Under the pieces are notes generated by a model, which worked only from the letters and a program-made list of their open reading frames with translations, searched no databases and was not told where the DNA came from. A program made the position numbers and the translations under genes. Shown here in pieces: positions 3,001-43,194 of a DNA stretch of 64,000 nt (its first letter is position 1; each line of letters begins with the position of its first letter). This DNA is from Candidatus Omnitrophota bacterium (GTDB lineage: Bacteria; Omnitrophota; Omnitrophia; Omnitrophales; Aquincolibacteriaceae). The stretch spans positions 482 through 64,481 of the forward strand of contig JAUYMS010000024.1 of assembly GCA_030698625.1 (NCBI GenBank), written 5' to 3'.

Positions 3001-6000
3001 ACAACCGCAGGGCTTCTTCTTCGGTAGCGATTGGCAAGGCCTTTGTCTGACGAATGGGATTTTCTAGATATTCATTATTAAGTGCCGCAACTCGGCGACT
3101 CATCACCGGCGGTGTAATAATTGACTCGCCTAGATCTTTGAGCTCCTTGGCTCCGATATAATCGCTCAAACCTCGCAAAAGCGCCGGAAGCGACACATCC
3201 TGCCCATCGGCAATCAGCGCTTGATGCGCCTTGACAAGGGCAAAACTCAGGGGATCGATAAGAATTTCACGAAACTGCCCCAGGGCAACTTCATCCAAGC
3301 TCAAGCTGTATATAAGCGCCACCTCTTCTCCCTCGATTTGATCGCGAATTTGCGCCATGAGCCCAAGGCTGAATTCATACCAGTTTTCTGCGTCGTTATT
3401 CTCCAAATAGCGCAGGGCGATTTTTTGAATTTCTTGTCGAATCACCTGGCGGCGTACATTTTTGTCTGCTTTGGCACGTGTTTCACGGCGCTGGGTAAGC
3501 ACCTGCTTCAGCGAACCGTCCCGCTCGAATCGGTATCCCCGGCTGAATAAGAAGGCCTGCAGATCCCGAGCACCGACACCTTCTCCCAACCATGTCGCAA
3601 GATTCTGCAGGCCGTCGCTCGGGGCAAGCTCTCCCAAATACGGCTCATAAACCAAAAGACTCCTCTGACTCAGGTAGGTAACAACCTTGCTTTGGAGATC
3701 CTGATATCTCTGCTCAATGCGGTCAGCTACCGCATGATAATCACGCACAAACTTATTCGGATTCTCTGCCTTGCGGAACATCTCCCAATAGAAATCTCGG
3801 GCGTCATGCAGCAGCAGCCTTAATGAGAGGCGCTGTTCGTTAGTCATGATGGACTGTTCGTAGCCCTGAACGTTAACTTTGGTTTCGCCTGCGGCATCAA
3901 TAAGTCGTGTCATTTCCTCTTTGGGAAAATCCGAAGGCTCCAGACCGTTCTTCGTTGCCCACACTAAGATGTCAGCCTGCCAGTCCAAATCTCGGAGAAA
4001 ACGGACTAGGGATCGTGTTACCGGTGACCGCCACCCCTGAAGGGCTTCACGCGCTGTGGTTTCGTCAATGTGAACGCCGATGCTGATGCGAGTTGCTAGA
4101 GTCGCAGCATCACCTTCCCGGGCATAATTTGGGTCGGCGGCAATAATGGTAAGCAGGCCGGCTTGTTCAAGCGTGATCTTCTCTGACCGGGCCAATTCAG
4201 AAATGACGTGGAATGCGGGCTCAGTTTTGTCCAGATGAGTTGCGATTCGAGTTTCAATAGCCGCATGAAAATCCGCGTCGGCGTCGGGGAGATCCACGAC
4301 ATGAAGTGAATCAATCTGCCCCCTAATTCTCCCGATCAACGGGCGATCCAAATAATCGTCAATGCGGTCTTTCAAATGCAGCTTGCGTGCTTCCTCACTC
4401 ACAGATCTATGTGTTTTGTGATATTGCTCTTGAAGCTGCTGCAGGCGCTCACGGGCCGCCGCGAGAAAGTCACGGACAATACCGGTCTTCGTCTGCTCGT
4501 CCGCAGACTCGGCAATAGGCGCCATGATTCCGTCGTTCCCATAGTGCGCGCGGGCATAGGCGATGATCGCATCTCCCAGTCGCCTGATCACAGAATCTGT
4601 ATTTGCACGGTTGCCCAAGCCCTGAAGGCCGGTAAGAAAAGGCTTCACTCTGTCGTCCAATCCGCGCTCTCGAACATTGTGGGGAATATCGATATCCATA
4701 ACACCCTGCGCCACAGCGATCTTAAAGGGCCGACTTCGAAAATAGGGCTCTTGTTCAAAGAAATACCTTAACTGATATAAAAACTCGATAAAGGGATCAG
4801 GATTTTTGATGATGGCTTCAAGAGCTCTCTCCGGAAGATCTCGCCCCCAGAAAAGGTGATCGTAAGCACTCCAGAGCGGTTCACTGCGCTTAATCAAATC
4901 ATAGGCCAGAAGTATCTGCCTTTGCGTTTCAGGAGCATAGTGCTCGGCCGTTTTGGATGCGAGGCCTTGGTCCAGCATAACATCGGTGAACGTGTCACGA
5001 ACCGGCACGGAGAGTCGATTCCAGATCACCACATAAAAAAGCCGCCAAACGTCATTGGCGCGCGCCCGTGACTCGCGCAGGTAATCAAGGACTTCATCAA
5101 CCGTCTTCCCGTCGCTCTCCGCAACCATCGACACGCTTGCACTCATAGAATCATCCGTTTCAAAGGAGAGCTCCTCCTGAACACCGTATGTAATCAGATC
5201 TTCGGCGGCAATCTTTGCGGCGAGCTTTTTAACGTTTCGGTAGTCCTGTTCGGCCAACGTCATGATGCCTTCGACGGGAAGATTGTCCAAGAGCTCAAAT
5301 GGCTGGGTATCGCTCTGCAACACTTCTGTGTTAATCCGCGCCAACAAATCCTCCACCTCCGCTTCTTGCCATTCCCTGTCCTCCTCACCCCTTCCCCAAT
5401 TGAGAGCTATCGTCAACTCCTCTTTAGACGGCTCCGCGGCATTTCGTCTTTCGTCTCGAGCACGGAGGCGACGGGGATCCAACTCATCGAACTCGGCCTC
5501 AGATCTTTCCCGATAATTCTCCTTGTAGGCCCGAATGGCATGGTAATGAAGCAGGACAGTATGTCCGCCGTCCATGATGGCCGGATCATAGGCATTGGGA
5601 GGATTCACGGGAATGGTAATGACATCCAAGTCGATCACGGCACCCGGAATCTCGACGGCCGCAGCCAACCTTTCCATCTTTTCACTAAGCGGTGCCCGCA
5701 CCTCAAAATCTACGCGCCCCTCTTTGGCATCAGATATAATCTCAAACTGATCCGCAAATGGCTCAATCGCTTTCAACACGCGGTCATCTTCAATAAACCC
5801 CACGGTCGGAATCTTGGCTATTCGCGTCGCCAAGTCCAAAACATCTTTAATACGGTCACTCTCAACCGCGAGAGCTTTCAGAGCCTGACTGACGGCTTTG
5901 GCATCAACGCCCTGCTTCAGGAGGTCATAACCCATGACAACAGCAAGCAGGATCGCTTGCTCGACAGCCGCTTCGGGAAGCGTGTGGTCTTCAACACCTT

Positions 6001-8698: not shown

Positions 8699-11600
8699 TT
8701 ACGCCGAAGCCGCGATCTCGCGATGGGACGCAGCCATAAGCTGCAAGAGGGTTGTCAATATGGTGATTCCTGTGGAAACATCATATTGAACGGAGCCGGC
8801 ATACCTCTCCAGTGCCTTATCAAGAGCTTGAGCCGTTATCTCCGCAGTTTCAGTCGTGCTGAGAAACTGCGCTAGCGGAGGAACTAACGACATACTAAAG
8901 GCAAGAGGTACACCGTTGCTGCGCACGATACGCTGTCTCGGCACTGATCTACTCAGAGCCAGCCACCTATCATGGGGAAAGAAAATCCCGTATGCGTCCG
9001 CAAACTTCTGGTTACCAATAACACGTTGATCGAGCTGCTTGGTAAGCTCAACCCATTGTGAATCTGTCCCGTCTACCCAATACAAAGAATCTCTAACTAA
9101 GTTCTGAGCCGCGGCCTTCTGTTTTGACAGCGCACTCAGGAAATCACCCTTCTGCTTCTTCTCCTTATCAGAAAAAACAATATGAAACTGAAAATCCTTA
9201 ACATCTAAATTCGGTTGGCTGTCCACCGCTTCGTAGACGCGCGCGACAAAAGAGAGTAATTGCTCCTTGATTTCCGGCGAATAAAAGATGATGGGAGTTA
9301 GCTGCTTGACTTCCTGGCGCTGAATCGCATCGACTAAGCGGTCCAGCGAAGCACGAAACTCCTCCCGGGCAATTTGATTAAACTGCTGGGGGCTGAAGCG
9401 GTGCTCCTTTAGAACTGTTCCGGCGTACGCGTATGCCTCGCGGGTAGATCCGGAGAACTGCTGAGCGGCAGCTGTGCGAACAAAGAGGTGATCAAAAATC
9501 AAAAGCCGATAAGAGGCGCGGAGGCCGTCTGCGAAACCCGCCACTCCGGTATCAGAATTGGCGACGTTCTCTACGGTAAGCGCTGAGGTGCGTGCAATGA
9601 CGACGGGGCTCGGCGAAACAATCCCGGCAGCAACTTCTGCAATGGCCCTCAACTCGGAACGCTGATCTCCTGCCTTAGGCGCTGGCTTCGCTATCGTCAG
9701 GGTGTTTTCAGCTTCCTCATCTAACGGATTGCGTATGATCTGAAGCAACATCGTTCCTGGTTCACCCGCCTTTTCAACGACGGCAAAGGCAGTATGCGCC
9801 TCAATCGTCTCATTTCCGTCCGTAACCTGAGGAATAATGAGTCCGTCACTGGGCTTTGAAATATCGATAATGGCCACGGGATGATTGTTTTCGTCGTCGA
9901 TAATGTAGTCAAAGATCGGAGTCATGTGCCCGGAATCTGCGACGCCGGTAGGTCCCACGATGTCCGCAATTTCCCGCCTGACCTGGAATACCGCCGCTAA
10001 ACTCCTTCCGGGAAGTTTTCGTACGATGAGGGCCGGGCCTTTCGCCTCCCGACCTCCGATTAGAAGCAATCCATGCGCCGGTAGCCCGTCAGCCGCTATC
10101 TTGGGCCATATTTTCGTCTGCCCACCCTTACCGCGACCACCCAACCGCGTTATTCCATATCTTTTGTCTGCACCCCTACGATAGGCGCCATTCCACTCCG
10201 GAAAACGAATACTTGTGACATCTTCTTGGGTTTCTATGGCTTCCCAATTTAAATCCCACGGCTCTTCCACAGAGTCCGGAGTCATTCCCGGCTTAAGCCG
10301 ACCAAGCCACGTCCGTTCACCGGCCTCATCCACATGGATGATCGTAATCGATGTCTCCTCGGCATCGCCCTCAAGATCCATTTCCTCGTCAAATTCAGTA
10401 TCGATATGTCCCGCGCTTAAGCGGTTCGGAAACTTTTTGCCGTGGCGGCCGATGAAGAGCTCAATCGCGCGCGTCTGATCCGCCGCAAACTCGTCTTGAA
10501 TTTCGTCCCCAAGTTTTTCGCTGAGATACTCACGGATGCGTCGAACAACGCTCGAATCCAGAGAGCCTCCGAGCGCTATCGCTTTACGCGAAGCCCGGTA
10601 CTTCCCGAGAAAATCTCGATTCTCTTTTCGTGTGCCGCCCGCGCTGTGTTGAAAATTCAATATGCGCCCTTCCAATAGCGGAAGTGCCTTGGGGTCCGCA
10701 AGCTCCCAAAGAAATTTCACGAGGTGTGCATAAACCTTCTGATTTACAAGCGTGGTAGCGATTTCAAGATAGCGGCCCGACTCCTTAAGGCCGGCAAAGC
10801 GTTGCTGCAGCCTGTCCAAGCCGACAAACGCAAGCTCCAAGCGATTTTCATCGCTCAGGCCTTTAATTTCGGAGACGAGAGCATCCAAATGGGCATGAAG
10901 TCTGAGCTGTAAGAGTGTGGTAATATCGGCGGGCGCCAAGCCTGAGTCTTGCACGAGGTGCGCATTCACCCAAATGGTCTTATTATCCTCATCCACGATG
11001 ATGTCCGAGGAAAAGTGCTGCATTCCTTCCTGAATCATGACGAATGTATAGCCCTTTCCATCACTGAAGTTGGCGGGATTTTTGAGTAACTGCATCAAAT
11101 CATGATCGTCGGTGATATCGTCGGGAACCGGTTCGGGTTGAGGCAGAACTTGGGGACGGCCACCTCGGGGCTGTCCGCCTGTGGCTGCTGGTTCTTCGAC
11201 GATGACACGGCGGCCTTCATTATTCATATCAGAAAGTGTCCGCCGCAAGAGGTCAATCACTTCAACGTCAAGCTCATTGGCAAATGGATCCCATTCTGGA
11301 TTATCTCCGAAGCGCACATTCAGGATTTCGCCCAGAACGCTTTCAAGATAGGCTGCTTCGGGATTCAAGTCGATCATCTGATGAATTTTACCGGTAATTT
11401 GGGGCACCGCACCTATGTCCGGATGGGCTGTCGAAATGAGCCCTTTAAGCTCCCCTTTTAGTCTCAGGAGCTGCACCTCTTCCGAACGTAATTCCACCGC
11501 ACGCCTATTGATGCGCGTAACCCTATCTTCAATCCAGGCGTTCAGGCTGCTCGTCGGGTCTCCCTGATCCCCATCATCGGTGGGCGGATGAATGTGTATC

Positions 11601-14600
11601 ACGTCCGCACCGCTTCGTGTCAGGCTATGGCGTCTGCCGCTTCGTATCTCATAGCCATCCCAGGGGAGCCTGCTTAATCTTTCCGGACTAAGGTCGACGT
11701 CAACATTCGTCCTCTTTGCCAGCACGAATGAACTCTGCGTCAGAACCTTACGCAATCTGGCCGGAATACCCTCTAGGTTGAGCGTGCCGAATCCGTTATG
11801 AACGACGGTCATTCCGTAGTTCTCCTCAAGAAAAGTTCTCGCCGCTTCGGTCATGTCACCGTTGTGAAGAAAGAGCAACACATAACCATCCTTCTTCGTA
11901 TGCTGCACGAGTTGTTTCAACATATAATTGCGCTGGCCTACGTAGAGTTTCGGAATGTCCGCTTCCGTAATTCCTGCGGGAATACGGTCGAGTACCATAT
12001 TCAGTAAGCTCCTCTCCGCCCTCGGCAGGGCTTCCGGCACGCGAGCTCTGTGCTCTCCCCGCAAACGCCTGCGGATAATATCCTCCAGAATTCTGCGCTG
12101 TTCCGGCGTTAGATCCGGAGGAATGATCGGTTGACCATAATGCCAAAGTTCGGAACCTATGGTCAACTGCGCCACTTCGGGCTCCAAATCATCCAAGACG
12201 AGGTTCTTATTTATGTAATCAACGTTCGTAACACCCCGGTTATCCAAGTTCTTGTGCGCTAAATCCAGCATAGCTTGGGAGAAATCCACTAGGTTATAGT
12301 GCAGGTCATTGATCTTGAAATCACCCGTCGGTGAAAGATTTGCCATGATACGACGAACCTCGTACCAGCCGAGAAGATCTGTGGCCGGTCCTGAGGGCAG
12401 AAAGCTAACCGTATCCCCCTTCGACAATTCAATCTGTCCGGTCGTCTGTAGTTCTACAAGGTAACGCAAAAACATCTGCCCCAAAGGATACGCAGCCAGC
12501 CGCGTAATTTTTTCGGAATATTCTTTGGCAAAGCGGTCCCACATGTCGCGTACGGTATTCCAGTCACCCGTCCGCATTGCCACTGAGTAAATGCGTTCTA
12601 AGTTTGCGAGTAATCGTAACATTTTGTCGCGCTCGCGCGACGCGTCTTGAATCGCTTGATAACTGCTGACTTCAAGTTGCTCGTCATCCACAAATCCGTC
12701 CAGGGCCTGAAGCAACATGTCGCGTTTCGTACCCACAAGAGGAATTGCGCGGGTCGCTTCCCATGTATTCGGCGCATAATACTGACGAATGTGAATTTCG
12801 TCGGCGGACTGACCACGCCGGTAAATGCGCGAGATCACCTGCTCACGTCTTGCATCGGTTAGCGGAGAGTCAACGATGTAAATTGCATCAGTGGGCTTCT
12901 CCTCGGAGCCGACGACGTCGAAACCTTCCCCGCCGGAGCCCGCCATCGCTAGAAGTATCTCCTTATCCGGAGAATCATGATCCGTGTGTCGATTAAAGTT
13001 TTCGATGGTAGCATACCGAAGCGGTCCCGTGACCGGTTCGTTGTGGTCAGGCTTCTGTAGTGTTGCGATAAATTCCTGTCCGAGGCGCCGTTGCACCATG
13101 CGGCGAATACGTGCCATGGGCTTCGGAAATGTGGCTGTATTGTAGTCCGCATGCATGACAATAGCCCGGAAGTCACGCAGGGCTTGTTCCTGACTGACCG
13201 GTTTCGTTGCGACAATCCTGCGGCCGATAACGCTTTCGAGATAGGGCTGCGCCTTGTGTTCAACTCTCCGGACGAGGTCATCCTCGGCAACTAAATCCTT
13301 GCTTATCGATTGAATAACACGCTGAATTGAAGCGACGGGAATACCGAGTTCGCTAACATCCGATACTTCCGAACGACCCGCCAGGACGCGCTGCAGTCTC
13401 AGGACCTCCGCCTGTCCGCGTTTCTGGGCCACCAATTCATGAATACGCCGCAAGATGGCGTGAAAATTACTAACGGCAAAGACTTTACTGTCAGGATGAG
13501 TACTACGGTGGTTAATAAGATCAGTAGCCACCGCGTCGAGGCGCGCAGGCGAAGTAAAGGCATAGGGGAAATTGGGATTCGTCGAGGGATCCCCATAGGG
13601 ATTGGGGGGCCCCCAGGATTGCCTGTCATGAGTCAACTCCCTTATGGCTTCGGCAATAATTCTGTCGATACTTTCTTGAACACGAGGATTGATCTCGAGT
13701 TGATCCTGAAGCGATGGCAGTGCTTCCTCCAGACGCAGCAGTACAGCCTCAAGCGTCGCAGGATCAATTCCTAACGCATCCAAATCCAAGCTTCCTAACT
13801 GAAGTCGGGTAATTTTTCCAACGCGTTGCTGGTTATCCGCCGTATTCAGGAGGTCCCTGTCGAGATATTCATAAACTGCCTGCTGAAGGTTATCACCGGC
13901 CGGTGTCAAACGTTGTTCGAGACTCACTTCTACGAACTCGGTATCGAGACGCTCGGGCAAATTATCGCCCAGGACCTGTTCGCGCGACCTCCGGATAATA
14001 ATACCACGCCTGCGCAAATCAAGATTTAGAGCGACGCGCCCCGCAACACCTTGATAACGCCGACCGAACCCGCGTTGGGAGGCGGCCAGATTCGAAGCGC
14101 CGTTCAGCTGCTCGGGGTATTCCTCCGGGTCCAGCAGATGCAGCAAAGGATAAAGATCACCGACGGAGTTTACTAGCAATGTCCCCGACAAAAGCAGGAT
14201 ACGCTGTTCAGGGCGCGTACTGCGCATTGAGATCAGTGTTTTTGTCTCCGAATTCGTCGCATTCTTAAAGCGGTGGGCCTCGTCAACGATAATGAGATCG
14301 GGTCCCTGATCAGCCCCGCCCCAGTTCCTGAGCTCTTCGGCCAGAACGTCCTTTTGCTGACGCGTATCCCCGTCCCATTGAATATCTTGACCCGTCGCCA
14401 AAAAATTGTAATTGATCATAACAAAGCGCGCCCTGTTTTTGGCGTAAAGCAATCTCTGCATGCGCGTCGAGTTGCCGTAAGCACCTGAATAATCGGCATC
14501 GATAATCACATAGAGATCCTTTTTCGGACGCTCTCCCTCGGGAAGCTCCTGTAGCCCATCAGCAATTCGTCTCTCGCGGTTCCAATCCTCCTCAGTCATA

Positions 14601-17600
14601 CTGTTCCAATCAACCGCACTCAGATCAAGCCTTTCGGTGTTCGGTAACCATGACTGGATATGCTTTTCTTCCCAATTGTTGAGCACGCCATTGGCGGCAA
14701 TTAGGAGAACGCGTTGGTTACGTTGATTTTCCGATGCCGTCTTCAAGGCCTGCTGCATCATAATATCTTTAGCAACCTGCGCAACGCCGAGCGCTTGCAC
14801 CGATTTACCGAGACCCGGCTCATCGCCGATGAATCCCCGCAGGGTCCTTACTCCAAAGTCAATTCCCTCATGCTGATAGAGCTCTAACTCCTGCTTGATA
14901 CTCGTGCCGGGCTTTACTGCGTTGACATGACTTTGGTACTTGGCTTGTTTGAGATCGTTATAATGCCGTCTTAATTCTGTGTAGACAGTGACATTGGCTT
15001 CGGCTTTTGCCAAACGCAACTGAAGCGCTCCGTCCTCCGAAGCAGTTTGTTCGCGACGAACGGCATCAACTTCAGTCTGCCACTGCGCGCGTCCCGCCTC
15101 GGCCCATTCGATAGCGATCTCCATCGCCTGTTCGGCCGGCGTCCCGCCCTTGCCATTGGCTTCGTCGGCGGCCGCTGCCATCAAATCATTCGCAATCCTC
15201 TCTCTTATCTGTGCAAGTAGAATATTCTTTGTACTGTCATTCTGAAAAAAGAGGTAAAAATCATTCTCCAGATGTTCAATCCGGCCACGGCTGTACGATG
15301 TCGGTTTCCGACTCTTCCTGCCGTTAAGTTGCTGACGGAATTTTTCGGTTAGAAGTTGCATCAGTTGATCTTCGGCCATCTGCGGATTGGCTGCCGACAG
15401 CAAAAACCAGAACCCTGCGCGGTCGGTCTCGAAGAGATCGAGCCATTCATCCATATTAATGGTACGCGTCAGTTGCCGGAAGAGATCGCGGTTGGTCTCG
15501 TCGACTGTTTTTTCCAGACGTCTCTGCCTCTCAATCGCGCCAAAACCCTCGTATTGCCTAAAGCCCGTATCGTGTAGGAGCAATTGCACCGCCGTCTCAT
15601 AAATGCGGTCGGGACCCGCTGCGGCGGATACGTAATCTCGATTGACAACTTCTGCCTCGTACACCGCAATGAGAGACTCCAGGTTCTGATCCCCCAGGAT
15701 CGGCTGCTTAAAATTGCTTCGGTTCCGGAGAAGACCGTCCATGTCGGTGTCAGCTTGAGACATGAGATAGAGCAAGAGCGTACGTATCGCGTCGCGACTG
15801 ATGATCCTCTCATCCTGCCACGGGGCTTCGGCAAGATTGGAGAGCCACCTCTGACTGGGATCAAGCAGCTGTGTCCGCAACTCGGAGCGAGCCGGTAAAT
15901 TCCTGAACACCCGGCTCAGTTGTTCGCGAGTTAGGGCATCATCACCGGCCAGCTTAGCGATGCCGGATACAAGCCTCCTCTTACCAGAGACATACTTTGC
16001 CAATTCTGCTGCCGCAACACCGCCGATCCTTCTGTTGACACCACGTTCACCGGGCTTCCCCTTTTCCCAGTAACCAACCGTTCCTGACTGCACGGGTCCG
16101 CCGAGCGCCGCATAGATCACGGCTTCATGAAGTTCGGAATTGCTCAGATTAAGTGCGCGCGCAACTAAGAAAGCATTATCTAAGAAGTTACTTCTCAACT
16201 TACCTGCAACGACTGGCGTAATGTTGCCGTGAGGAAAGTTTGCCCTTTTAATAGCGGCTTCGACGGCGGCTTCAAGGGCTTGGTTGGCTTCATGAAAGAT
16301 CGGTTCCATTTGGATCAAACTAAGATTGGGTACCCCAAGAATACGCGCCACCGCTGCGGCATCCGTAACTTCATTTCTCGGCAATGCTGTTCCTAAGAGG
16401 AATTGTGCTAACTTCGCCGCGTCCTCCCAGGTAATGGTCGCAATAGGGTTACTGCTCCACCAGCGTCGTGCTTTCGCCACGGGGAGGCCCACAGCTCGGG
16501 CGATATCCTCAACGCCCAGTCCAAACTCCCTCGCTACCGCTTGCGTATTGGCCAGAAAATGGCGATTCGCCCGTATCGTATCGACATCTTCCCTCACCAA
16601 GCGGTGAGAGCCTCGCCTGTAAAGCCATCGTCCGGGCGGCGTGATAACTTCTCGCAAGCGCCTTTCGGCCGCAATGTCCCCGTCGGTCGGCTCGTCCCTG
16701 CGTGCCAAAGCCGAAGGTGCCGGCTCGGGAGCCTCTCCAAAACTCGCATAGATCTCTCTGAGTTGCGCCGTCCCGATTGACGTGTCACCGTATATCTTGG
16801 CTACCGCGCGGACACCATTCGCTTCCCCTGTGACGTATTTAGCGAGTTCCGAGACGAAACCCCACGCCGCAACAGGATCTTCATGCGTGCCGTCCCTGCG
16901 GTCCAATCCGTTTGCCCAGTAGTAGGACGAGGTCGTACGAAGCGCCTGATTGATCTCTCCGTGCGTAATACTCAGCACCGGCGTCACGCGATAGATATTC
17001 CCAAGGACACGCTGTTTAAAACGTTCTGCGGATGCAACCGTAATATTGCCGGGATTGAACTGGGCCGCCGGCAAAGGCGTCGCTTTATCCCGCACGGCTT
17101 GGTCAACTTCCTTTTGAGCATCTGTAAAGACTGCCGCAAGCTGGCGCACACTCAATCGCCGGATACCGACGAGCCTTGCCACCGCTGCCCGGTCATCGTA
17201 AGCGGCTTCATCCTCGAGGAGGTACTTGGCAAGCTTGACCGCATCGTCCCAGGAAATCGTGACATGTTCGTTTCCTTCATAAGTCCACCAGCGCGTGATT
17301 TTCCCGAAAGCTATGCCTGTCTCGGCCGCAATGTCGCGGCTCGCCTGCGTGACTTCGTCTTCGCCCCAGAGGGCTTTAACAACCGCAAGCGCATTGCGAA
17401 TAAAATGGCGGTTAGCGCGCTTCTTATCTATGGAAGCGACGGTATATTGGTCCAGCCATGCCTTCGGATTCTCAATTGTGCGGTTCAGATCGACCCCTGC
17501 GCGCAATTCCGAACGCTCACCAAAATCCGAGAACACCTGTTCAAACTCCGCACGGCCAAGGCTACTGTGCCCTGCGAGTGTGGCTACGGCGCGAATCTGT

Positions 17601-20600
17601 TGCTTGCTTGCCGAGACATACTGTGCGAGCTCGGCTATATAAGCCCAGCTTATGCTCGGATATTCCCACTCGCCATCCTTGCCCGGCTTACCTTTCTGCC
17701 AGTAATTTGCCGTCGTCGTATCCAAGGCTTCGTTTATTTCAGGATTTGTGATACCCAACTGCGGGGTGACACGGAACACGTTCTGCAGCGCGTGCAGTTT
17801 TAAACGGCGGGCATCTCCGTTCTCGACATTACTGGCATCAAAGAGAGAGTACGGCAGGTCGAGGGTTTGCTCGGCCACAATGGTCTTGATCGCATCTCTG
17901 GCACCGTCGAAGATGGGCGCCATTTGGATGAGGCTCAGGTTCGGTGCCCCGATCATGCGCGCCACAGCAGCCGCATCCGTATAATTCTTTTCGATACGAA
18001 GCAGATAGCGGGCAAGCTTTGCAGCATCCTCCCAGTTAATGGTCGCTATGGGGTTGTTCCACCAGCGGCGGACTGTCGCCACATGCACGCCCACAACATC
18101 GGCGATTTCCTGATCGTCGATCTCCAGGTTGTCGGCAACGCGACCTGCATTTTCAAGAAAATGTTGATTCGTCTTGATCGTGTCGGCATCCTGCTTGACA
18201 AGACGATTCGATCCTTTTCGGAATAAGCCACGGGCCGGCTCACGAATCCCGCTGACCTGGGCCACATCCCCCTTGGGCAATCTTTCTCTCGCCCGCCTGA
18301 AGATGGCCGCGATCTGGGCACGAGAGAGTGATGTGTCCCCGAATAGATAAGCCAGCGAACGGTAATAGCTGGTCGCCTCTGGATACCCGGTCAGAGCCAA
18401 CTTGGCCAGTTCTCGGGCATATTCGAGGTCAATACTGCGATAGACAGTACCTTTCTTACCCTTCTTCCAGTAATCCACTGTCCCCGTGCTTCCGGCGCCG
18501 GTGGTCTGACGTATTTCTTCATAGCTGTAATGATTCCCGATCATCCAAAAGGCGTTATCCAAAAAGAGATTCCGTGCCGTTTTGGCTTGTTCGATCGTAA
18601 GATTATCAAGATCAACGACTTCCCCACGCTTCGCGAAGTAATTTTGTAAGGTAGTCGGCTGTTTGACGAGATCCCCGTCTTCGGCCTGGGTCCTGAGCTC
18701 TGAGCGCGTAGGAAAAGCCGCAAACACTTCGCTTAATTCCGCATGCGTCAGGTTCTCGTCGCCGGTCAGAGTGGCGGTTGCCGACACAGCCAGCTTCTTT
18801 CCGGTAATATACTTTGCCAACTGAGCTGCATAGGGCCCGCGAATCGTTCGCTTGGCACCTTTCTCACCGGGTTTGCCATTTTCCCAGTAACCTACTGTTC
18901 CTGATTGGGCCGGTCCGCCCATGGCGATATGGATCACGGCTTCATGGATTTCGGCGTTACTCATGTTCAGTGCCCGCGCTGCGAGAAAGGCATTGTCGAG
19001 AAAGTTACTTTTCAGCTTTCCGGCTGCAGTCGGCGTCAGAGGATCCCGCTTAAAGTTAACGGGTTTAACAGTATCGGCGATAATCTGATTAATGACCTTA
19101 TTGGCTTCGTGAAAGATGGGTTTCAGCTGAATCAAACTCAGACGCAGCGCACCGAAGATTCTTGCAACCGCTTGCGCGTCGGTGAAGTCGCCCGATTCGT
19201 CACGCAAAAGCCGTTGAGCCAATTTTGCGGCATCCGCCCATGTAATCGTGGCAATCGGATTGGCCCACCAACGGCGAACCGTCGCAACGTGAACACCGAC
19301 GAGATCGGCAATTTCCTGATTATCAATTTCGAGGGCTTGAACAAGCGCATAGGTATTGGCAATAAAATGGCGATTGACCTCGACTTTTCTATCACCGATA
19401 TCTTCCGCGAGAATCCGTTTCGAACCAGGTCTGAAAAATTCATCAGCTGGTCTTTCTATAAGTCTATTGATATTGACTGGCCCATCGGCGGCGGGCGGTG
19501 CCGGTCTCGATTTAGCAGGCGATTTCACGACCGCGGGCTGCCGTGTCTGCGGCGTAGGCATTTGGTCGTCACGCGGAAAATCACGCCATATCCGGCTCAA
19601 CACATTTGCATCAATCGTGTCATCGCCCGCCATTTTGGCAACGGCTACGACCGGGTCCACTTCAGCGGAGACATATTTCGCGAGCTCGGAAGCAAAACCC
19701 CAGGCAATGACAGGGTCCTCATGGGTGCCGCCCGGGCGGTCCAATCCGTTCTGCCAATAATAGGCAGACGTGGTATTGAGCGCATTATTAATTTCATAGT
19801 GCGTCACCTTTAAGGCGGGAGTCATTCTGTAAATATTGCTGTAGACATGCTGTTTGAAGCGCTCCGCCAATTCCGGCGTAATCTCATTGCGGTCAAAATC
19901 AATGCCGCTAAGGGGCTGCACTAATTCTTGGGCAACCTCATCAATAACGTTCTTCACTCCCGTAAAGATGGGCGCTAATTGTCTCAAACTCAGGCCTTTA
20001 TTACTCGCCACGCGCGTCCCGAGAATACGTGACACCGCGGCCGCAGGTTCATAAGCGAATTCGCTTTCCAAGAGGACGAGCGCCAGAATAGCTGCATTGG
20101 CAAAAGTAATAGTCGCGGCGGGATCCGTTCTCCAGAACGACACCGTACTAGGCGTAATTTCTTCGTCAAGCGTTGCAAAACCGTCCACGATATCCACATT
20201 CCGAATGCCTAAGGCATCGGCAACGCGAAACGCATTCTTCAGGAAGTGGCGGTTGGCCTTGTTACCGTCAAGCGTGCCGAGGTCATAGGGCTTGAACCAT
20301 TTGCCCGGTTTCTTGATCACCCTGCTGAGATTGACCGTCTCGACATCTTCGCCCCTGAGTTCCGATCGGGCCCGAAAGCCCGGATACCTTAAAAGAAAGT
20401 CGGGTCTTAAAGATTGCGTGCGGAAGACCGCAAGAATCGTTCCAGCCGGTACGGCTTCGGCAAACTGGTTGGTAGGGCTGCTCAAGATGCGCGCCACTTC
20501 AGCTTCCGTGAGCCTATCCTGCTGATCCAAAATATTGATTCGTTCGATGAAGCGTTCCAGATTCGCGGACCACTTCTCAGTGAAACGCGTGATCAGATCA

Positions 20601-22357
20601 TCTTCCATTCGGCTTTCTATCTTGCGGTCGAGAAGTTGCGTATAGCGGCCTGCCTGTGTGATGCGGCCCTGTTCATAGAGACTCCGAATCACGGAATCAC
20701 GCCAGGCCCTAAGTGTAAGGCCCTGTTTGACGCTGCCCTCCGTAAGTCTATCTACGGTTGCCTCTGTAAATGCCGCCCGCAGGTCAATGCGGCCCTTACG
20801 GACTTTAAAATACTTATTCCAGGACACTTGTCCGCGCATGTAATCTTGATACCGTGTCTGTTCCGGGATTTCGTCAATATCGGGGGTCACCACCGCAAAG
20901 GATATCCCCTCCGCTCGAAAGGACTCGGCAAGTGCCTCGCGGTGAAAACCACCGGTAATAACGACAACAGTCTTATCTGCCTGCTTTGCACTGAGCTTTT
21001 TGATATTCTCGAGGAAGACCTGATCGCGCTTAAATGTCGTTTCATAGAAATGACGAAAAGCGAGGGTAGTCTCCTCGTCAAAGAGCGCCTGAACTTTTGC
21101 TGCCAAGCCTTCAGCGACCCCGTCAAAGGCAATAACATGACGCATCCAATCGTTGAGCGCATCCCATTCGGTCCGCGAAAGCTCCAGACGCTTTAGCTTT
21201 CCGAGAAGAAAGATCTGCCTGTCCAGATTATCGATGCGGCGTTCTTCAGGTCCTTGGACAACGGTGTCCTTGACCTCTGCGACATAGGCATCCCACTGAG
21301 TAAAAAACTCAGGGCCTCGAGTACGACTAAGCAGATTATGATGTCGGGTCAGCTCTTCTAGCCTCTGTGAGATATTTGGCAGCTCGATGTGCTTCGTCTC
21401 TTGGAGTTCGCTTAGCAGATCTGAGAGGACGCTTGCAAATCCGGCTCGGCTGATGGCTTCGGTTCGATAAGCCTGAAGCTTCTGGTGAAAGTCGCGTATC
21501 TGTGAAGTCGCCGTGAGGACCGGTTTTATGGCAGATGCAATCGCCTCAAGTTCCTGATCAAACTCTTTGGCGCTCTTAAACTCCTCGAGCTTAATACTCT
21601 TCGCCAACGAGTGAACTAGCGGATAGGCATGCTCGTCAACGGGATGAATGCCGACCATGTATGCCATCAAGTCACTTAGATAGCCCCGTTCGACCCGCCA
21701 CCGTTTCAAACGCCTGTCGAGCGCCATTGTCTGCGCACTATAATGCCCTTCTTTGAGAGTATTCAGCTCGCCTTCCAGTTGTTCGAGATATTCCTCTAGC
21801 TTTGGCCCCTCATTTAATGAAACCAGGAATGACGCGGTACCCTCTTCATACAAGCTTGGGTCTTCCATCCCGACATACAGCGTGTCGTCATCACCAAGGA
21901 CGCTGGCGGCAATGGCACCGGAGAGTTCTCCACTGCGCATATAATCGCCGAATACCTGCTCCAACTTTTCCCTGTCTGGAAACGCCCGGAATAGGCTTGG
22001 GTCAAATGCCTTGTCGGTACCTTCAAGGGCGACCGCATCGACGGTATATGCATTCAGCAGATAGCGCAATATCTTATAGATTGAACTCTGAGCTTGAGGA
22101 ATGGCGTGTGCGTCCTGAATAAAGATCACCGTCGGGGCCTCTCTGTCCGACTGATAGCGTTCTTCTATATACCCCAGGTCTTCCGGTAATTTAAGCAGGC
22201 TGAGAGAGCCGTCTCTAAGAGACTGGCGAAACGCAGGGACTTGGGTTTGAGCTCCAACCAAAGGCAGGGCCGCATACGCCGCCTGCATGGGGTTAAAAAT
22301 AACCTCAGCGGCGCAAAATGCAATGAGAGTCATCGTTGAGATAATCTTCTTAATCAT
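8699..22357 (-). CDS. Giant multidomain protein B, 4552 aa. Approximate layout: signal peptide or signal anchor (aa 1-35); conserved N-terminal domain with 'IFIQDAH' (aa ~82) and 'ITGGFHRE' (aa ~469), possibly TraB/GumN/Tiki-like; repeat array with HTH-like 'RRWW' motifs (aa ~650-2150); SNF2-family helicase core (aa ~2480-3200); about 1300 aa of C-terminal region of unknown function.
   Basis: An uninterrupted 13.6 kb ORF. SNF2 motifs read from the sequence: motif I GFIGDEPGLGKS (nt ~14800-14830), motif II LIIVDEAHRFKN (nt 14261-14284), motif III LLLSGTLLVNSVGDLYPLLHLLDP, motif VI QVISRIYRRGQ (nt ~12811-12845). The HTH-like repeats and N-terminal hydrophobic segment are described under findings. 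Confidence 0.9.
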   Translation of the reverse strand: MIKKIISTMTLIAFCAAEVIFNPMQAAYAALPLVGAQTQVPAFRQSLRDGSLSLLKLPEDLGYIEERYQSDREAPTVIFIQDAHAIPQAQSSIYKILRYLLNAYTVDAVALEGTDKAFDPSLFRAFPDREKLEQVFGDYMRSGELSGAIAASVLGDDDTLYVGMEDPSLYEEGTASFLVSLNEGPKLEEYLEQLEGELNTLKEGHYSAQTMALDRRLKRWRVERGYLSDLMAYMVGIHPVDEHAYPLVHSLAKSIKLEEFKSAKEFDQELEAIASAIKPVLTATSQIRDFHQKLQAYRTEAISRAGFASVLSDLLSELQETKHIELPNISQRLEELTRHHNLLSRTRGPEFFTQWDAYVAEVKDTVVQGPEERRIDNLDRQIFLLGKLKRLELSRTEWDALNDWMRHVIAFDGVAEGLAAKVQALFDEETTLAFRHFYETTFKRDQVFLENIKKLSAKQADKTVVVITGGFHREALAESFRAEGISFAVVTPDIDEIPEQTRYQDYMRGQVSWNKYFKVRKGRIDLRAAFTEATVDRLTEGSVKQGLTLRAWRDSVIRSLYEQGRITQAGRYTQLLDRKIESRMEDDLITRFTEKWSANLERFIERINILDQQDRLTEAEVARILSSPTNQFAEAVPAGTILAVFRTQSLRPDFLLRYPGFRARSELRGEDVETVNLSRVIKKPGKWFKPYDLGTLDGNKANRHFLKNAFRVADALGIRNVDIVDGFATLDEEITPSTVSFWRTDPAATITFANAAILALVLLESEFAYEPAAAVSRILGTRVASNKGLSLRQLAPIFTGVKNVIDEVAQELVQPLSGIDFDRNEITPELAERFKQHVYSNIYRMTPALKVTHYEINNALNTTSAYYWQNGLDRPGGTHEDPVIAWGFASELAKYVSAEVDPVVAVAKMAGDDTIDANVLSRIWRDFPRDDQMPTPQTRQPAVVKSPAKSRPAPPAADGPVNINRLIERPADEFFRPGSKRILAEDIGDRKVEVNRHFIANTYALVQALEIDNQEIADLVGVHVATVRRWWANPIATITWADAAKLAQRLLRDESGDFTDAQAVARIFGALRLSLIQLKPIFHEANKVINQIIADTVKPVNFKRDPLTPTAAGKLKSNFLDNAFLAARALNMSNAEIHEAVIHIAMGGPAQSGTVGYWENGKPGEKGAKRTIRGPYAAQLAKYITGKKLAVSATATLTGDENLTHAELSEVFAAFPTRSELRTQAEDGDLVKQPTTLQNYFAKRGEVVDLDNLTIEQAKTARNLFLDNAFWMIGNHYSYEEIRQTTGAGSTGTVDYWKKGKKGTVYRSIDLEYARELAKLALTGYPEATSYYRSLAYLFGDTSLSRAQIAAIFRRARERLPKGDVAQVSGIREPARGLFRKGSNRLVKQDADTIKTNQHFLENAGRVADNLEIDDQEIADVVGVHVATVRRWWNNPIATINWEDAAKLARYLLRIEKNYTDAAAVARMIGAPNLSLIQMAPIFDGARDAIKTIVAEQTLDLPYSLFDASNVENGDARRLKLHALQNVFRVTPQLGITNPEINEALDTTTANYWQKGKPGKDGEWEYPSISWAYIAELAQYVSASKQQIRAVATLAGHSSLGRAEFEQVFSDFGERSELRAGVDLNRTIENPKAWLDQYTVASIDKKRANRHFIRNALAVVKALWGEDEVTQASRDIAAETGIAFGKITRWWTYEGNEHVTISWDDAVKLAKYLLEDEAAYDDRAAVARLVGIRRLSVRQLAAVFTDAQKEVDQAVRDKATPLPAAQFNPGNITVASAERFKQRVLGNIYRVTPVLSITHGEINQALRTTSSYYWANGLDRRDGTHEDPVAAWGFVSELAKYVTGEANGVRAVAKIYGDTSIGTAQLREIYASFGEAPEPAPSALARRDEPTDGDIAAERRLREVITPPGRWLYRRGSHRLVREDVDTIRANRHFLANTQAVAREFGLGVEDIARAVGLPVAKARRWWSSNPIATITWEDAAKLAQFLLGTALPRNEVTDAAAVARILGVPNLSLIQMEPIFHEANQALEAAVEAAIKRANFPHGNITPVVAGKLRSNFLDNAFLVARALNLSNSELHEAVIYAALGGPVQSGTVGYWEKGKPGERGVNRRIGGVAAAELAKYVSGKRRLVSGIAKLAGDDALTREQLSRVFRNLPARSELRTQLLDPSQRWLSNLAEAPWQDERIISRDAIRTLLLYLMSQADTDMDGLLRNRSNFKQPILGDQNLESLIAVYEAEVVNRDYVSAAAGPDRIYETAVQLLLHDTGFRQYEGFGAIERQRRLEKTVDETNRDLFRQLTRTINMDEWLDLFETDRAGFWFLLSAANPQMAEDQLMQLLTEKFRQQLNGRKSRKPTSYSRGRIEHLENDFYLFFQNDSTKNILLAQIRERIANDLMAAAADEANGKGGTPAEQAMEIAIEWAEAGRAQWQTEVDAVRREQTASEDGALQLRLAKAEANVTVYTELRRHYNDLKQAKYQSHVNAVKPGTSIKQELELYQHEGIDFGVRTLRGFIGDEPGLGKSVQALGVAQVAKDIMMQQALKTASENQRNQRVLLIAANGVLNNWEEKHIQSWLPNTERLDLSAVDWNSMTEEDWNRERRIADGLQELPEGERPKKDLYVIIDADYSGAYGNSTRMQRLLYAKNRARFVMINYNFLATGQDIQWDGDTRQQKDVLAEELRNWGGADQGPDLIIVDEAHRFKNATNSETKTLISMRSTRPEQRILLLSGTLLVNSVGDLYPLLHLLDPEEYPEQLNGASNLAASQRGFGRRYQGVAGRVALNLDLRRRGIIIRRSREQVLGDNLPERLDTEFVEVSLEQRLTPAGDNLQQAVYEYLDRDLLNTADNQQRVGKITRLQLGSLDLDALGIDPATLEAVLLRLEEALPSLQDQLEINPRVQESIDRIIAEAIRELTHDRQSWGPPNPYGDPSTNPNFPYAFTSPARLDAVATDLINHRSTHPDSKVFAVSNFHAILRRIHELVAQKRGQAEVLRLQRVLAGRSEVSDVSELGIPVASIQRVIQSISKDLVAEDDLVRRVEHKAQPYLESVIGRRIVATKPVSQEQALRDFRAIVMHADYNTATFPKPMARIRRMVQRRLGQEFIATLQKPDHNEPVTGPLRYATIENFNRHTDHDSPDKEILLAMAGSGGEGFDVVGSEEKPTDAIYIVDSPLTDARREQVISRIYRRGQSADEIHIRQYYAPNTWEATRAIPLVGTKRDMLLQALDGFVDDEQLEVSSYQAIQDASRERDKMLRLLANLERIYSVAMRTGDWNTVRDMWDRFAKEYSEKITRLAAYPLGQMFLRYLVELQTTGQIELSKGDTVSFLPSGPATDLLGWYEVRRIMANLSPTGDFKINDLHYNLVDFSQAMLDLAHKNLDNRGVTNVDYINKNLVLDDLEPEVAQLTIGSELWHYGQPIIPPDLTPEQRRILEDIIRRRLRGEHRARVPEALPRAERSLLNMVLDRIPAGITEADIPKLYVGQRNYMLKQLVQHTKKDGYVLLFLHNGDMTEAARTFLEENYGMTVVHNGFGTLNLEGIPARLRKVLTQSSFVLAKRTNVDVDLSPERLSRLPWDGYEIRSGRRHSLTRSGADVIHIHPPTDDGDQGDPTSSLNAWIEDRVTRINRRAVELRSEEVQLLRLKGELKGLISTAHPDIGAVPQITGKIHQMIDLNPEAAYLESVLGEILNVRFGDNPEWDPFANELDVEVIDLLRRTLSDMNNEGRRVIVEEPAATGGQPRGGRPQVLPQPEPVPDDITDDHDLMQLLKNPANFSDGKGYTFVMIQEGMQHFSSDIIVDEDNKTIWVNAHLVQDSGLAPADITTLLQLRLHAHLDALVSEIKGLSDENRLELAFVGLDRLQQRFAGLKESGRYLEIATTLVNQKVYAHLVKFLWELADPKALPLLEGRILNFQHSAGGTRKENRDFLGKYRASRKAIALGGSLDSSVVRRIREYLSEKLGDEIQDEFAADQTRAIELFIGRHGKKFPNRLSAGHIDTEFDEEMDLEGDAEETSITIIHVDEAGERTWLGRLKPGMTPDSVEEPWDLNWEAIETQEDVTSIRFPEWNGAYRRGADKRYGITRLGGRGKGGQTKIWPKIAADGLPAHGLLLIGGREAKGPALIVRKLPGRSLAAVFQVRREIADIVGPTGVADSGHMTPIFDYIIDDENNHPVAIIDISKPSDGLIIPQVTDGNETIEAHTAFAVVEKAGEPGTMLLQIIRNPLDEEAENTLTIAKPAPKAGDQRSELRAIAEVAAGIVSPSPVVIARTSALTVENVANSDTGVAGFADGLRASYRLLIFDHLFVRTAAAQQFSGSTREAYAYAGTVLKEHRFSPQQFNQIAREEFRASLDRLVDAIQRQEVKQLTPIIFYSPEIKEQLLSFVARVYEAVDSQPNLDVKDFQFHIVFSDKEKKQKGDFLSALSKQKAAAQNLVRDSLYWVDGTDSQWVELTKQLDQRVIGNQKFADAYGIFFPHDRWLALSRSVPRQRIVRSNGVPLAFSMSLVPPLAQFLSTTETAEITAQALDKALERYAGSVQYDVSTGITILTTLLQLMAASHREIAASA
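12750..14920 (-). other. SNF2/Swi2-family helicase core (SNF2 N-terminal ATPase domain plus helicase C-terminal domain) embedded in gene B.
   Basis: DEAH-box variant DEAHRFKN, Walker A GLGKS, motif III LLLSGT, arginine-finger motif QVISRIYRRGQ. Confidence 0.8.
15900..20400 (-). repeat. Protein-level tandem repeat array inside gene B. At least five diverged modules of about 250-300 aa (the fifth, 'VADALGIRNVDIVDGF', is degenerate). Each carries 'ANRHF(L/I)xNxxxVAxxLxIxxxEIAxxVGVHVATVRRWWxNPIATIxWxDAAKLA', resembling a transposase/excisionase-type helix-turn-helix, followed by 'YWxxGKPGExG' and 'AELAKYV' submotifs, and ending in 'RSELR' plus acidic residues.
   Basis: Motif copies found at nt ~19265-19315 (EIADLVGVHVATVRRWWANPIATITWADAAKLA), ~18065-18115 (EIADVVGVHVATVRRWWNNPIATINWEDAAKLA), ~17285-17340 (GIAFGKITRWWTYEGNEHVTISWDDAVKLA), ~16455-16510 (IARAVGLPVAKARRWWSSNPIATITWEDAAKLA), and a degenerate copy at ~20160-20260. 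Confidence 0.7.
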
Positions 22358-42566: not shown

Positions 42567-42648
42567 TGCGAGCGAGAGGATTTGAACCTCCATGGCTTGC
42601 GCCGCCAGCCCCTCAAGCTGGTGTGTCTGCCAATTCCACCACGCTCGC
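42567..42648 (-). tRNA. tRNA-Leu (anticodon GAG), type II with a long variable arm; CCA not encoded.
   Basis: Manual fold: acceptor GCGAGCG/CGCTCGC, anticodon stem CCAGC/GCTGG with loop UUGAGGG, T-arm GAGG-UUCAAAU-CCUC, 14-nt variable arm. Confidence 0.85.
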
Positions 42649-42666
42649 GTATGAGTTTCACGAACC

Positions 42667-43014
42667 TTAAGATCCCCGCTTCGCCGAACGCTCTTTGCGT
42701 TCCGCCTCGAGGGTTGCTTCGACCTGTGCCAATTCGGCGTCCAGCTTCTTTGTCCGTTCCACGAGGTCATTGACCTCTGGGTCCTCTAAAAACTGCGCGT
42801 TGCCCTCGCGCGTGCTCTTTTCGTAAATGCGGTTACCTAGCTGAGCGAATCGCTTAGCAACACGATGTTCCAATGTCGCCTTTTCAATCAGGAGTCCCGT
42901 CACGTGGGCAGCTTCGCCCGCTTTTTCCGAAACTACCTTGACCGAGTGCTTCGCGGCCTCAAAGGCCTGATTCAGGATTTTCTCCGTATTTTCGTACAAT
43001 CTCTTCTTATCCAT
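42667..43014 (-). CDS. Small hypothetical coiled-coil protein (115 aa) between the two tRNA genes.
   Basis: A clean ORF with ATG start and charged heptad-like sequence. I could not recognise a family. Confidence 0.5.
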   Translation of the reverse strand: MDKKRLYENTEKILNQAFEAAKHSVKVVSEKAGEAAHVTGLLIEKATLEHRVAKRFAQLGNRIYEKSTREGNAQFLEDPEVNDLVERTKKLDAELAQVEATLEAERKERSAKRGS

Positions 43015-43053
43015 ATTTGCTGACTCCCGTCAGAAAATTCATATTCATGATTT

Positions 43054-43124
43054 CTGGGGGACCTGGATTCGAACCAAGACAAAGTGAACCAGAATCACTT
43101 GTGCTACCGTTACACTATCCCCCA
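43054..43124 (-). tRNA. tRNA-Gln (anticodon CUG); CCA not encoded.
   Basis: Manual fold: 5' UGGGGGA pairs with 3' UCCCCCA with G73 discriminator; anticodon stem AGUGA/UCACU with loop UUCUGGU; T-loop UUCGAAU. Confidence 0.85.
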
Positions 43125-43194
43125 ACGACTGGATCACAGCTCCAGAATCGAAGGGTGTATTATAGTAGCTCTCTTGAAGGCGTGCAAGGCTGAC

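Follow-up and report, generated by a model that had tools for sequence, protein, structure and literature searches.

Long and giant multi-enzyme proteins have been described in the Omnitrophota (West-Roberts et al., 2023, bioRxiv 10.1101/2023.11.21.568195; bioRxiv 10.64898/2026.06.07.730766). The authors of these preprints ask whether such giants are cleaved, state that the cleavage points are unknown and that this blocks further analysis, and propose peptidase domains of the C39 or S8 type as processors (10.1101/2023.11.21.568195; 10.64898/2026.06.07.730766). Here we analyze a 64,000-nucleotide stretch of DNA from a Candidatus Omnitrophota bacterium (assembly GCA_030698625.1, contig JAUYMS010000024.1, positions 482 to 64,481; hereafter the window) and, within it, a 4552-amino-acid (aa) open reading frame (ORF), ORF A. 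Our in silico analysis makes it moderately probable that ORF A encodes a polyprotein-type precursor, in which a pentapeptide, RSExR, delimits the individual modules. A first-pass annotation, made from the sequence of this DNA, had noted a 4552-aa protein with a domain combination that it did not recognize from any characterized family. The frame runs from an ATG start to a TAA stop on the minus strand, and an exact look-up matched it to the public record MDP3919809.1 ("SNF2-related protein"), which belongs to a Candidatus Omnitrophota metagenome-assembled genome (MAG); the combination of domains is likewise without a description in the literature searched.

The family to which ORF A belongs resembles the described Omnitrophota giants in its phylum, in lengths of thousands of residues, in the N-terminal signal or transmembrane (TM) segments, and in the mixture of enzymes carried (starch synthase, GT1, methyltransferase, HK-ATPase). 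However, with 4.5 kilo-amino acids (kaa), ORF A lies far below the "giant" range of these preprints. A text search of the preprints for SNF2, helix-turn-helix, TraB, Tiki, polyprotein, linker or motif yielded nothing, nor is a conserved tail mentioned in them, and we found no paper on Omnitrophota polyproteins in the literature searched. The layout of ORF A and of its downstream neighbor, gene B, is as follows (HTH, helix-turn-helix).

8699..22357, minus strand: whole ORF A, 4552 aa, MDP3919809.1
22268..22357, minus strand: Sec-type signal peptide, aa 1-30 (MIKK, h-region, P..AYA/A)
20369..22267, minus strand: head, a TIKI/TraB/EreA/ChaN-fold hydrolase-like domain, aa 31-663, with a large helical insert at aa ~170-460
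22106..22117, minus strand: QDAH, aa 81-84 (D82-x-H84)
20942..20953, minus strand: GGFH, aa 469-472, with the second catalytic-type His
20354..20368, minus strand: RSELR delimiter 1, aa 664-668, in a low-confidence part of the model
18707..20353, minus strand: cargo 1, an array of 4 XRE-type HTH units, aa 669-1217
18692..18706, minus strand: RSELR delimiter 2, aa 1218-1222
17516..18691, minus strand: cargo 2, 3 HTH units, aa 1223-1614, including the unit above the Pfam cut-offs
17501..17515, minus strand: RSELR delimiter 3, aa 1615-1619
15890..17500, minus strand: cargo 3, an array of 4 HTH units, aa 1620-2156
15875..15889, minus strand: RSELR delimiter 4, aa 2157-2161
9662..15874, minus strand: cargo 4, the SNF2 module, 2,071 aa, aa 2162-4232, without an internal delimiter
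12788..14878, minus strand: SNF2 ATPase core, aa 2494-3190, motifs I-VI, with an insert of ~300 aa between the lobes
11678..12490, minus strand: methyltransferase-like region, aa ~3290-3560, conserved, identity unproven
9647..9661, minus strand: RSELR delimiter 5, aa 4233-4237
8702..9646, minus strand: tail, a Rossmann-like alpha/beta domain, aa 4238-4552, ending in ..REIAASA
2..8608, minus strand: gene B, tandem paralogue, full length 2973 aa, MDP3919808.1, running off the window

The pentapeptide RSELR is present in five copies in ORF A (aa 664, 1218, 1615, 2157, and 4233) where 0.11 are expected, and a chance origin of this recurrence is excluded. The five copies form the exact borders between the head, three successive HTH arrays, the SNF2 block and the last 315 aa of the chain. 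Gene B possesses four further RSELR copies, and an Omnitrophota homologue (L001) has nine of the form RSE[MTIVA]R. A DNA-level repeat or site was considered and rejected, since the nine RSELR sites in the window use differing synonymous codons; hence, it is the peptide and not the DNA that is conserved, and selection operates at the peptide level. RSExR is absent from the other real genes of the window, including a third giant ORF (>3,475 aa).

To describe the motif statistically, we used the best 149 representatives of the head family, which together comprise 472,815 aa. They contain 656 RSExR motifs compared to 12.1 expected, a 54-fold excess, with L, V, A, M, T, or I at the variable position; the first copy is found at a median residue of 674, which is the end of the head, and the last one has a median distance of 291 aa from the C-terminus. 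Information is confined to the five positions of the motif itself, with small residues favored at -1 to -3 and +1 and acidic residues at +2 to +6, which gives the flanks a linker-like character, and in some members RAExR or RTEMR replace RSExR. Both AF2 (AlphaFold2) models have low confidence at the motif, and the chain is presumably flexible there. A metagenome scan provided an independent sample of 79 further loci, 68 of them with a recognizable family ORF, and these 68 loci hold 245 motifs in 176,287 aa. The excess is confined to the family: the non-family neighboring ORFs of these loci carry the motif at background level (about 4 vs. 2.6 expected), and the other motifs outside recognized family ORFs are located in the tails of upstream tandem family members. 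RSExR matches no known processing site found in the literature searched, where "RSELR" itself occurs in alginate-lyase papers only. Avoidance of N-degron residues at position +1 is real (14.6% vs. 32.1%); neighboring linker positions are depleted as well, and we give this feature little weight.

The extent of the family became apparent from an exhaustive hidden Markov model search with a profile of the head over 1.84 billion representatives, which returned 9,232 clusters with E <= 1e-3, of which 5,625 had E <= 1e-30. In these proteins, whose lengths vary from 560 to 7,984 aa, the head is always found at residues ~1-650. A word-indexed search with the head gave 3 matches and a narrower scan of genome contigs a single locus, and the family surfaced through the exhaustive profile search only. 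All members with a source name are proteins of Candidatus Omnitrophota MAGs and have been named after their cargo, e.g., glycogen/starch synthase, starch phosphorylase, 4-alpha-glucanotransferase, methyltransferase, or phosphoenolpyruvate (PEP)-binding protein; one of them (P0009, MDP3919656.1) has an accession number near that of ORF A and appears to stem from the same MAG. The Omnitrophota family that we propose is delimited by RSExR and is built from a Sec signal, a TIKI-fold head, variable cassettes separated by RSExR, a last RSExR and a Rossmann-like tail. ORF A carries all three of its features, namely the N-terminal signal with the TIKI-like head, RSExR at the borders, and a tail of the AA/SA/MA type. 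A C-terminus reading AA, SA, or MA is present in 118 of the 149 representatives and in 24 of the 29 complete metagenome ORFs.

The last 9-10 residues of family members often resemble a delimiter in degenerate form with x-x-[AS]-A behind it (ORF A, ..REIAASA; P0013, ..RSEARLAQMA; P0033, ..RAEVRKAA). The invariant small C-terminal residues may be akin to C-terminal recognition tags of the ssrA/Tsp type. No neighboring gene is conserved across the 68 metagenome loci, the most frequent ones being YchF, IlvD, and a HAMP histidine kinase, and the lack of a conserved partner gene makes the system look self-contained. Family genes often stand in tandem or as adjacent pairs, with several on one contig (L069, L018, L042, L019, L022, L052, L002, and L051), and many paralogues per genome are therefore likely. 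The closest relative of ORF A, P0001 (915 aa, "TolC family protein [Planctomycetes bacterium]"), is 79% identical to it over the C-terminal part of the head, RSELR, and the first HTH units, and then passes abruptly into TolC-like sequence on a 5.5-kb contig; a chimera that arose in assembly or binning is the probable explanation, and the Planctomycetes label of the record is doubtful. In P0003 (1093 aa, metagenome), a distant relative, signal and head are fused directly to a transporter of the major facilitator superfamily (MFS) without RSExR; the positive-inside pattern and MFS motif A of this protein are ambiguous as to a periplasmic or a cytoplasmic head.

A comparison of relatives demonstrates that the cassettes are shuffled, with their borders at the motif. 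The SNF2 block of ORF A (aa 2162-4232) recurs collinearly in P0021, in the order head, RSEVR, block, RSELR, tail, and in P0037, in the order head, HTH arrays, RSEVR, block, KSEVR, tail. Elsewhere in the family, the cargo consists of complete enzymes: starch synthase with GT1, a PEP-utilizing enzyme, a macro domain, a subtilase, or RNase III together with HEAT repeats and a methyltransferase.

In some relatives, segments that resemble N-terminal targeting signals are positioned right behind the motif. These include twin-arginine translocation (Tat)-type signals (RSEAR/APAVSRREMLRD.., ..SRRAFLTK.., RTENR/VMNRRFFLKR..VNA/ED, RAEVR/GKAEPPDRRDFLRW.., and RSETR/MLRREFLTT), lipoprotein signals with a lipobox (RSEWR/IWNRLIQISLAGVLCLAGC and two more in L060), and Sec-like anchors, e.g., RSELR/PLLKKIVAIIVVGG... 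Tat-like signals follow 4 of 1216 motifs compared to 4 of 6690 random positions, and lipobox signals follow 3 of 1216 motifs and none of the random positions; a strongly hydrophobic 14-mer is found at most 34 aa downstream of 2.6% of the motifs, but of only 1.0% of random positions, and precedes 0.5% of the motifs. One of the Tat-headed cassettes is a Peptidase_S8 protein, an enzyme known to be exported, with a match to Pfam TAT_signal at E = 0.0017. Tat, lipoprotein, and Sec signals function on a free N-terminus only, and Tat export begins in the cytoplasm. Their position right after the motif thus implies that each cassette becomes a separate cytoplasmic polypeptide. Where a first TM segment follows a long soluble stretch, its N-terminal flank is the more basic one 34 times vs. 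16; the reverse would be expected of a stop-transfer segment in a chain that had already been exported.

Peptides of 17-25 aa that are bracketed by two motifs recur across proteins of the family. P0031 contains five tandem 21-aa units of the form PVTDVxGLHKxFDSLD-RTEMR, as in peptide-precursor proteins, and short bracketed tandem peptides of this kind resemble precursor processing. Bracketed peptides were seen in P0075, P0089, P0096, P0113, P0125, P0141, P0150, P0031, L001, and P0014; examples are R-S-E-x-R-P-x(4-6)-G-x(3-6)-G-T-G-RSExR, ..LSTAQDVRPSAS.., and ..RRDATAVRLSGRQ... They may be released peptides or spacer modules.

We judged the N-terminus of ORF A by manual criteria for a Sec signal, i.e., a basic n-region, an h-region of 10-15 residues, and a small-x-small c-region. 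It starts with MIKK, continues with a hydrophobic 12-mer (Kyte-Doolittle hydropathy, 2.19) and ends with P..AYA/A, and is thus of the Sec type; the same n/h/c layout is present in 117-120 of 121 relatives with complete N-termini. Beyond this signal, a hydrophobicity scan of ORF A found no TM-grade segment. An internal TM anchor at aa 747-765 was considered and rejected, as the hydrophobic window there is a helix of an HTH unit.

The head (aa 31-663) has the parallel beta-sheet core with flanking helices that typifies the TIKI fold. Active TIKI enzymes share a set of two His and two Glu residues, i.e., E3900, H3902, E3930, and H4030 in RRSP, with H85/E113 in Bcr135 (PMC6254334). The corresponding constellation is intact in the head, since D82-x-H84, E112, and H472 are invariant in the 149 relatives, and E112 follows H84 by 28 residues, a spacing equal to that of H3902/E3930 in RRSP and H85/E113 in Bcr135; the equivalence of these residues rests on sequence order. 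None of the curated Pfam models of the superfamily (PF01963 TraB_PrgY_gumN, PF04187 ChaN, erythromycin esterase) matches the head at its cut-off; the best match, to PF04187, scores 14.8 bits for ORF A and 20.0 bits for L001, while the cut-off is 27.7. Since the curated models are not reached, the head represents a family of its own, new to the TIKI superfamily, and its site looks catalytic. The order and spacing of [D/E]-x-H ... E ... H are those of the TIKI, TraB-PrgY, erythromycin esterase, and ChaN superfamily; the head differs from it in having Asp in place of the first Glu, QDAH in place of GxxH, and a helical insert of ~290 aa, and in being always the first module of a multi-cassette precursor. 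Both the N-terminal hydrophobic signal and the tentative TraB/GumN/Tiki assignment of the first-pass annotation are thereby borne out.

Between aa 702 and 2161, ORF A contains 11 HTH units of about 100 aa, all of which can be aligned with each other. One unit in cargo 2 exceeds the Pfam cut-offs (PF20432 Xre-like-HTH, 28.1 vs. 25.8; PF13443 HTH_26, 26.9 vs. 22), and the remaining 10 align to it. A PDB profile search with the HTH region gave weak XRE matches (E about 0.1-0.3), and a PDB sequence search with the same region nothing useful. The multiple HTH modules proposed earlier are hence XRE-type units.

The SNF2 ATPase reported in the first-pass annotation is confirmed. Pfam SNF2-rel_dom (PF00176) matches ORF A with 56.9 bits (cut-off, 24.9), and motifs I (aa 2511), Ia (2551), II (2689, with DEAH at 2692), III (2721), IV (2958), V (3139), and VI (3171) can all be located, with motif I reading GDEPGLGKS, motif V SGGEGFD, and motif VI QVISRIYRRGQ. 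Pfam Helicase_C is not reported for ORF A, and the region of the collinear orthologue P0021 that is homologous to the C-lobe of ORF A scores 43.3 bits with this model. In these motifs and the SNF2-rel_dom match, the module is like SNF2/Swi2 ATPases, both bacterial (RapA, DrmD, and ZorD) and eukaryotic (CHD1/ISWI/Rad54), and among solved structures, CHD1, ISWI, and Rad54 are the closest to it in sequence. Unlike them, it has a conserved N-terminal extension of ~330 aa, an insert of ~300 aa between the lobes, and a C-terminal extension of ~1,000 aa with no detected relatives, and it is carried as a precursor cassette. With aa 3200-4552, neither a PDB sequence search (nothing useful) nor a word-indexed homologue search (no match) was informative. 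The methyltransferase-like pattern that had been flagged behind the helicase (aa ~3290-3560) is conserved in three orthologues, and the glycine-rich motif I is indeed missing, with P-[AS]-G-P-[AE]-T-D at the place of GxGxG; its identity as a methyltransferase is unproven, as no Pfam model matches and the best solved S-adenosylmethionine-dependent methyltransferase is found at E = 1.1.

Under the polyprotein reading, the ORF A chain would be cut at or next to each RSExR in the cytoplasm of the producer into six products: the head, three multi-HTH proteins, the SNF2 ATPase, and the tail. The head product alone would carry the Sec signal and leave the cytoplasm; the three HTH products, with 4, 3, and 4 XRE-type units, are predicted to bind DNA, and the fifth would be a DNA-dependent ATPase of the SNF2 type, 2,071 aa long, to which a methyltransferase-like part is appended. 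Most probably, the head is the only module that the export signal serves. No cargo module of ORF A, nor its tail, starts with a hydrophobic or Tat-like segment; lacking a targeting signal, these products are expected to remain cytoplasmic and to work on the DNA of the Omnitrophota cell itself. Export of the head alone would thus resolve the paradox of an SNF2 protein with an export signal, without injection into another cell. The HTH arrays plausibly direct or partner the SNF2 motor, and their renewed association with the SNF2 block in P0037 suggests joint action. As to the enzyme that cuts, the head is our first candidate because it is present in every member, possesses an intact TIKI site and belongs to a superfamily that includes true endopeptidases; we put this assignment forward tentatively, and a protease acting in trans is possible instead.

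Several considerations weigh against this interpretation. All evidence for cleavage is comparative. Clear cases of internal Tat and lipoprotein signals number only about 8, and past gene fusions could have left them behind. The weakest step is the role of the head as protease: its own Sec signal should remove it from the cytoplasm, and an exported head is unable to cut cytoplasmic sites unless it acts before export. To our knowledge, the known TIKI-fold proteases (Tiki, RRSP) have no specificity for Arg-Ser-Glu. By textbook Sec logic, moreover, an uncut chain without a stop-transfer segment is exported as a whole. The tail has no catalytic-looking invariant residues, and the suggested cooperation of HTH arrays and SNF2 motor derives from co-occurrence in two proteins only.

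We therefore weighed this interpretation against other explanations of the same data. The whole 4552-aa chain could be exported via Sec and passed to a prey or host, with HTH arrays and SNF2 ATPase acting on foreign DNA and RSExR possibly being cut outside the producer, either by the head or within the target, as in MARTX toxins. Such a route would fit the canonical Sec signal kept throughout the family, the lack of a second TM segment in ORF A, the description of the Omnitrophota as predatory with long proteins read as secreted, and glycogen-degrading cargo of relatives that could serve prey digestion; TIKI-fold proteins are, furthermore, often extracytoplasmic or injected effectors, e.g., HopBA1 and RRSP (PMC6254334). 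We nevertheless regard it as unlikely, and none of our findings calls for it: Tat and lipoprotein signals behind the motif would be senseless on an already exported chain, the positive-inside bias places the cargo upstream of TM segments in the cytoplasm, and part of the cargo consists of biosynthetic enzymes that need ATP, PEP, or nucleoside-diphosphate sugars. Neither are secretion-system or delivery genes linked to the family at the metagenome loci, and the surroundings of ORF A are of the housekeeping type. A similarly low probability attaches, in our judgment, to an uncleaved giant multidomain protein that is tethered to the membrane by its N-terminus and in which RSExR serves as a structural linker, a docking site or a regulatory motif. 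Giant multidomain proteins do exist in bacteria, the motif is situated in flexible linkers, and the preprints on long Omnitrophota proteins treat these as single and membrane-associated. However, a 54-fold excess of one motif across unrelated cassettes, together with N-terminal-type signals behind it, exceeds the needs of a passive linker, and the short tandem peptides between motifs resemble precursor processing; a signal with its N-terminus inside would, in addition, place the whole chain outside rather than tether a cytoplasmic protein.

That ORF A is an SNF2 helicase from an anti-phage defense system or a mobile element (DISARM DrmD, Zorya ZorD, or the methylase-helicase of a phage or plasmid), with extra domains fused to it, is, by contrast, very improbable. 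The phrog_62 "DNA helicase" profile matches aa 2368-2846 (E = 3.6e-37), and a methyltransferase-like stretch does follow the helicase. The NCBIfam/PADLOC matches to DrmD and ZorD, though, are faint: they cover about 60 residues near motif II and reach 15-18 bits where the cut-offs are about 950 bits. Furthermore, tblastn found no match in 50,697 phage and 72,556 plasmid records. Partner genes are missing among the neighbors (LpxA, FabF, S1, and aromatic amino-acid genes), and head, tail, motif, and family would be left unexplained. The first-pass annotation had pictured a single protein, either anchored to the membrane or exported or injected into another cell. Its domain assignments stand; RSExR cassettes, the recurring SNF2 cassette, and the internal signals favor a third reading, that of a precursor, over both of these options. 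It had overlooked the RSELR delimiters, the downstream paralogue gene B, and the conserved tail.

Gene B lies downstream of ORF A and shares its reading frame; one TAA and a spacer of 90 nucleotides separate the two, and we found no terminator-like site between them. It has its own signal peptide, the same head (24% identity) and TPR-like cargo, and it ends with ..REWCYP, i.e., without the canonical AA/SA/MA tail. Recoding or read-through from ORF A into gene B was considered and rejected: since ORF A ends with the family tail (..IAASA) and gene B starts with its own signal and head, these are two genes. The start annotated at NCBI for gene B (MAVNLCF..) is positioned 15 codons inside the signal peptide, and an upstream ATG (MKSKRIKPFLR..) restores a normal basic n-region.

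The surroundings of ORF A are composed of ordinary chromosomal genes (LpxA, FabF, ribosomal protein S1, aromatic amino-acid genes, ScpAB, TrpRS, GltX, and Dxs), and the G+C content is even over the whole window. The third giant ORF (53572-63999, minus strand; >3,475 aa) runs off the window, with its N-terminus beyond it; it encodes an E/K/R/A-rich coiled coil and has a GC skew of about -0.2 to -0.3 and an AT skew of about -0.3. At 42567-43125 and 43195-43806 (both minus strand), tRNA-Leu(GAG) and tRNA-Gln(CTG) adjoin a response regulator in which an N-terminal HTH_17 precedes the receiver domain.

The presence of a pentapeptide at the module borders, ahead of Tat, lipoprotein, and Sec signals, makes the question of cleavage in the Omnitrophota directly testable, and RSExR offers rules for splitting such ORFs in annotation and structure prediction. 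Head and tail represent two new domain families outside the curated models, and under the polyprotein reading it would no longer be puzzling that an SNF2 helicase, a glycogen synthase, or a PEP enzyme looks "secreted." It is conceivable, although we hold it with less confidence than the precursor nature of ORF A itself, that much of the Omnitrophota proteome is made in the form of chromosomally encoded polyproteins whose RSExR sites are cut by the TIKI-fold protease of the head. If true, RSExR would be the long-sought cleavage point of the long and giant proteins of this phylum, the mode of gene expression would be one not known for cellular bacteria at such a scale, and protease and site would form a new sequence-specific pair and a possible tool. 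Should processing be confirmed, especially with the head as the protease, the system would merit being called new in kind.

Among known systems, MARTX toxins are similar to ORF A in their size (3,500-5,300 aa), in their constant ends and variable central cassettes, and, if our reading is correct, in having a built-in protease that frees the cassettes by cutting the linkers between them; one MARTX cassette, RRSP, even has the same TIKI fold as the head. The likeness is in logic only. MARTX toxins are characterized by type I secretion, glycine-rich repeat arms, and an InsP6 (inositol hexakisphosphate)-activated cysteine protease that cuts after Leu, whereas Pfam and NCBIfam gave no matches in ORF A for RtxA glycine-rich repeats, the cysteine protease domain, or a type I secretion signal. 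The cargo of the ORF A family, moreover, comprises housekeeping-like enzymes and DNA proteins and is apparently processed in the cytoplasm of the producer.

In viral polyproteins, prohormones, and precursors of the cyanobactin PatE type, one ORF gives rise to several products, a short recognition sequence flanks the cassettes, and the protease is encoded in cis or nearby. The tandem identical short peptides bracketed by the site in P0031 correspond to multi-core peptide precursors of this sort. Precursors with delimiters are hence known in kind, and a cellular, chromosomal family of thousands of members is not described in the literature searched. In contrast to viral polyproteins and peptide precursors, the ORF A family is bacterial and chromosomal, has thousands of members, and carries full-size enzymes as cargo; if our reading is correct, it would be a proteome-scale cellular counterpart of viral polyprotein expression, delivering metabolic enzymes, exported proteases, membrane proteins, and a DNA-remodeling set.

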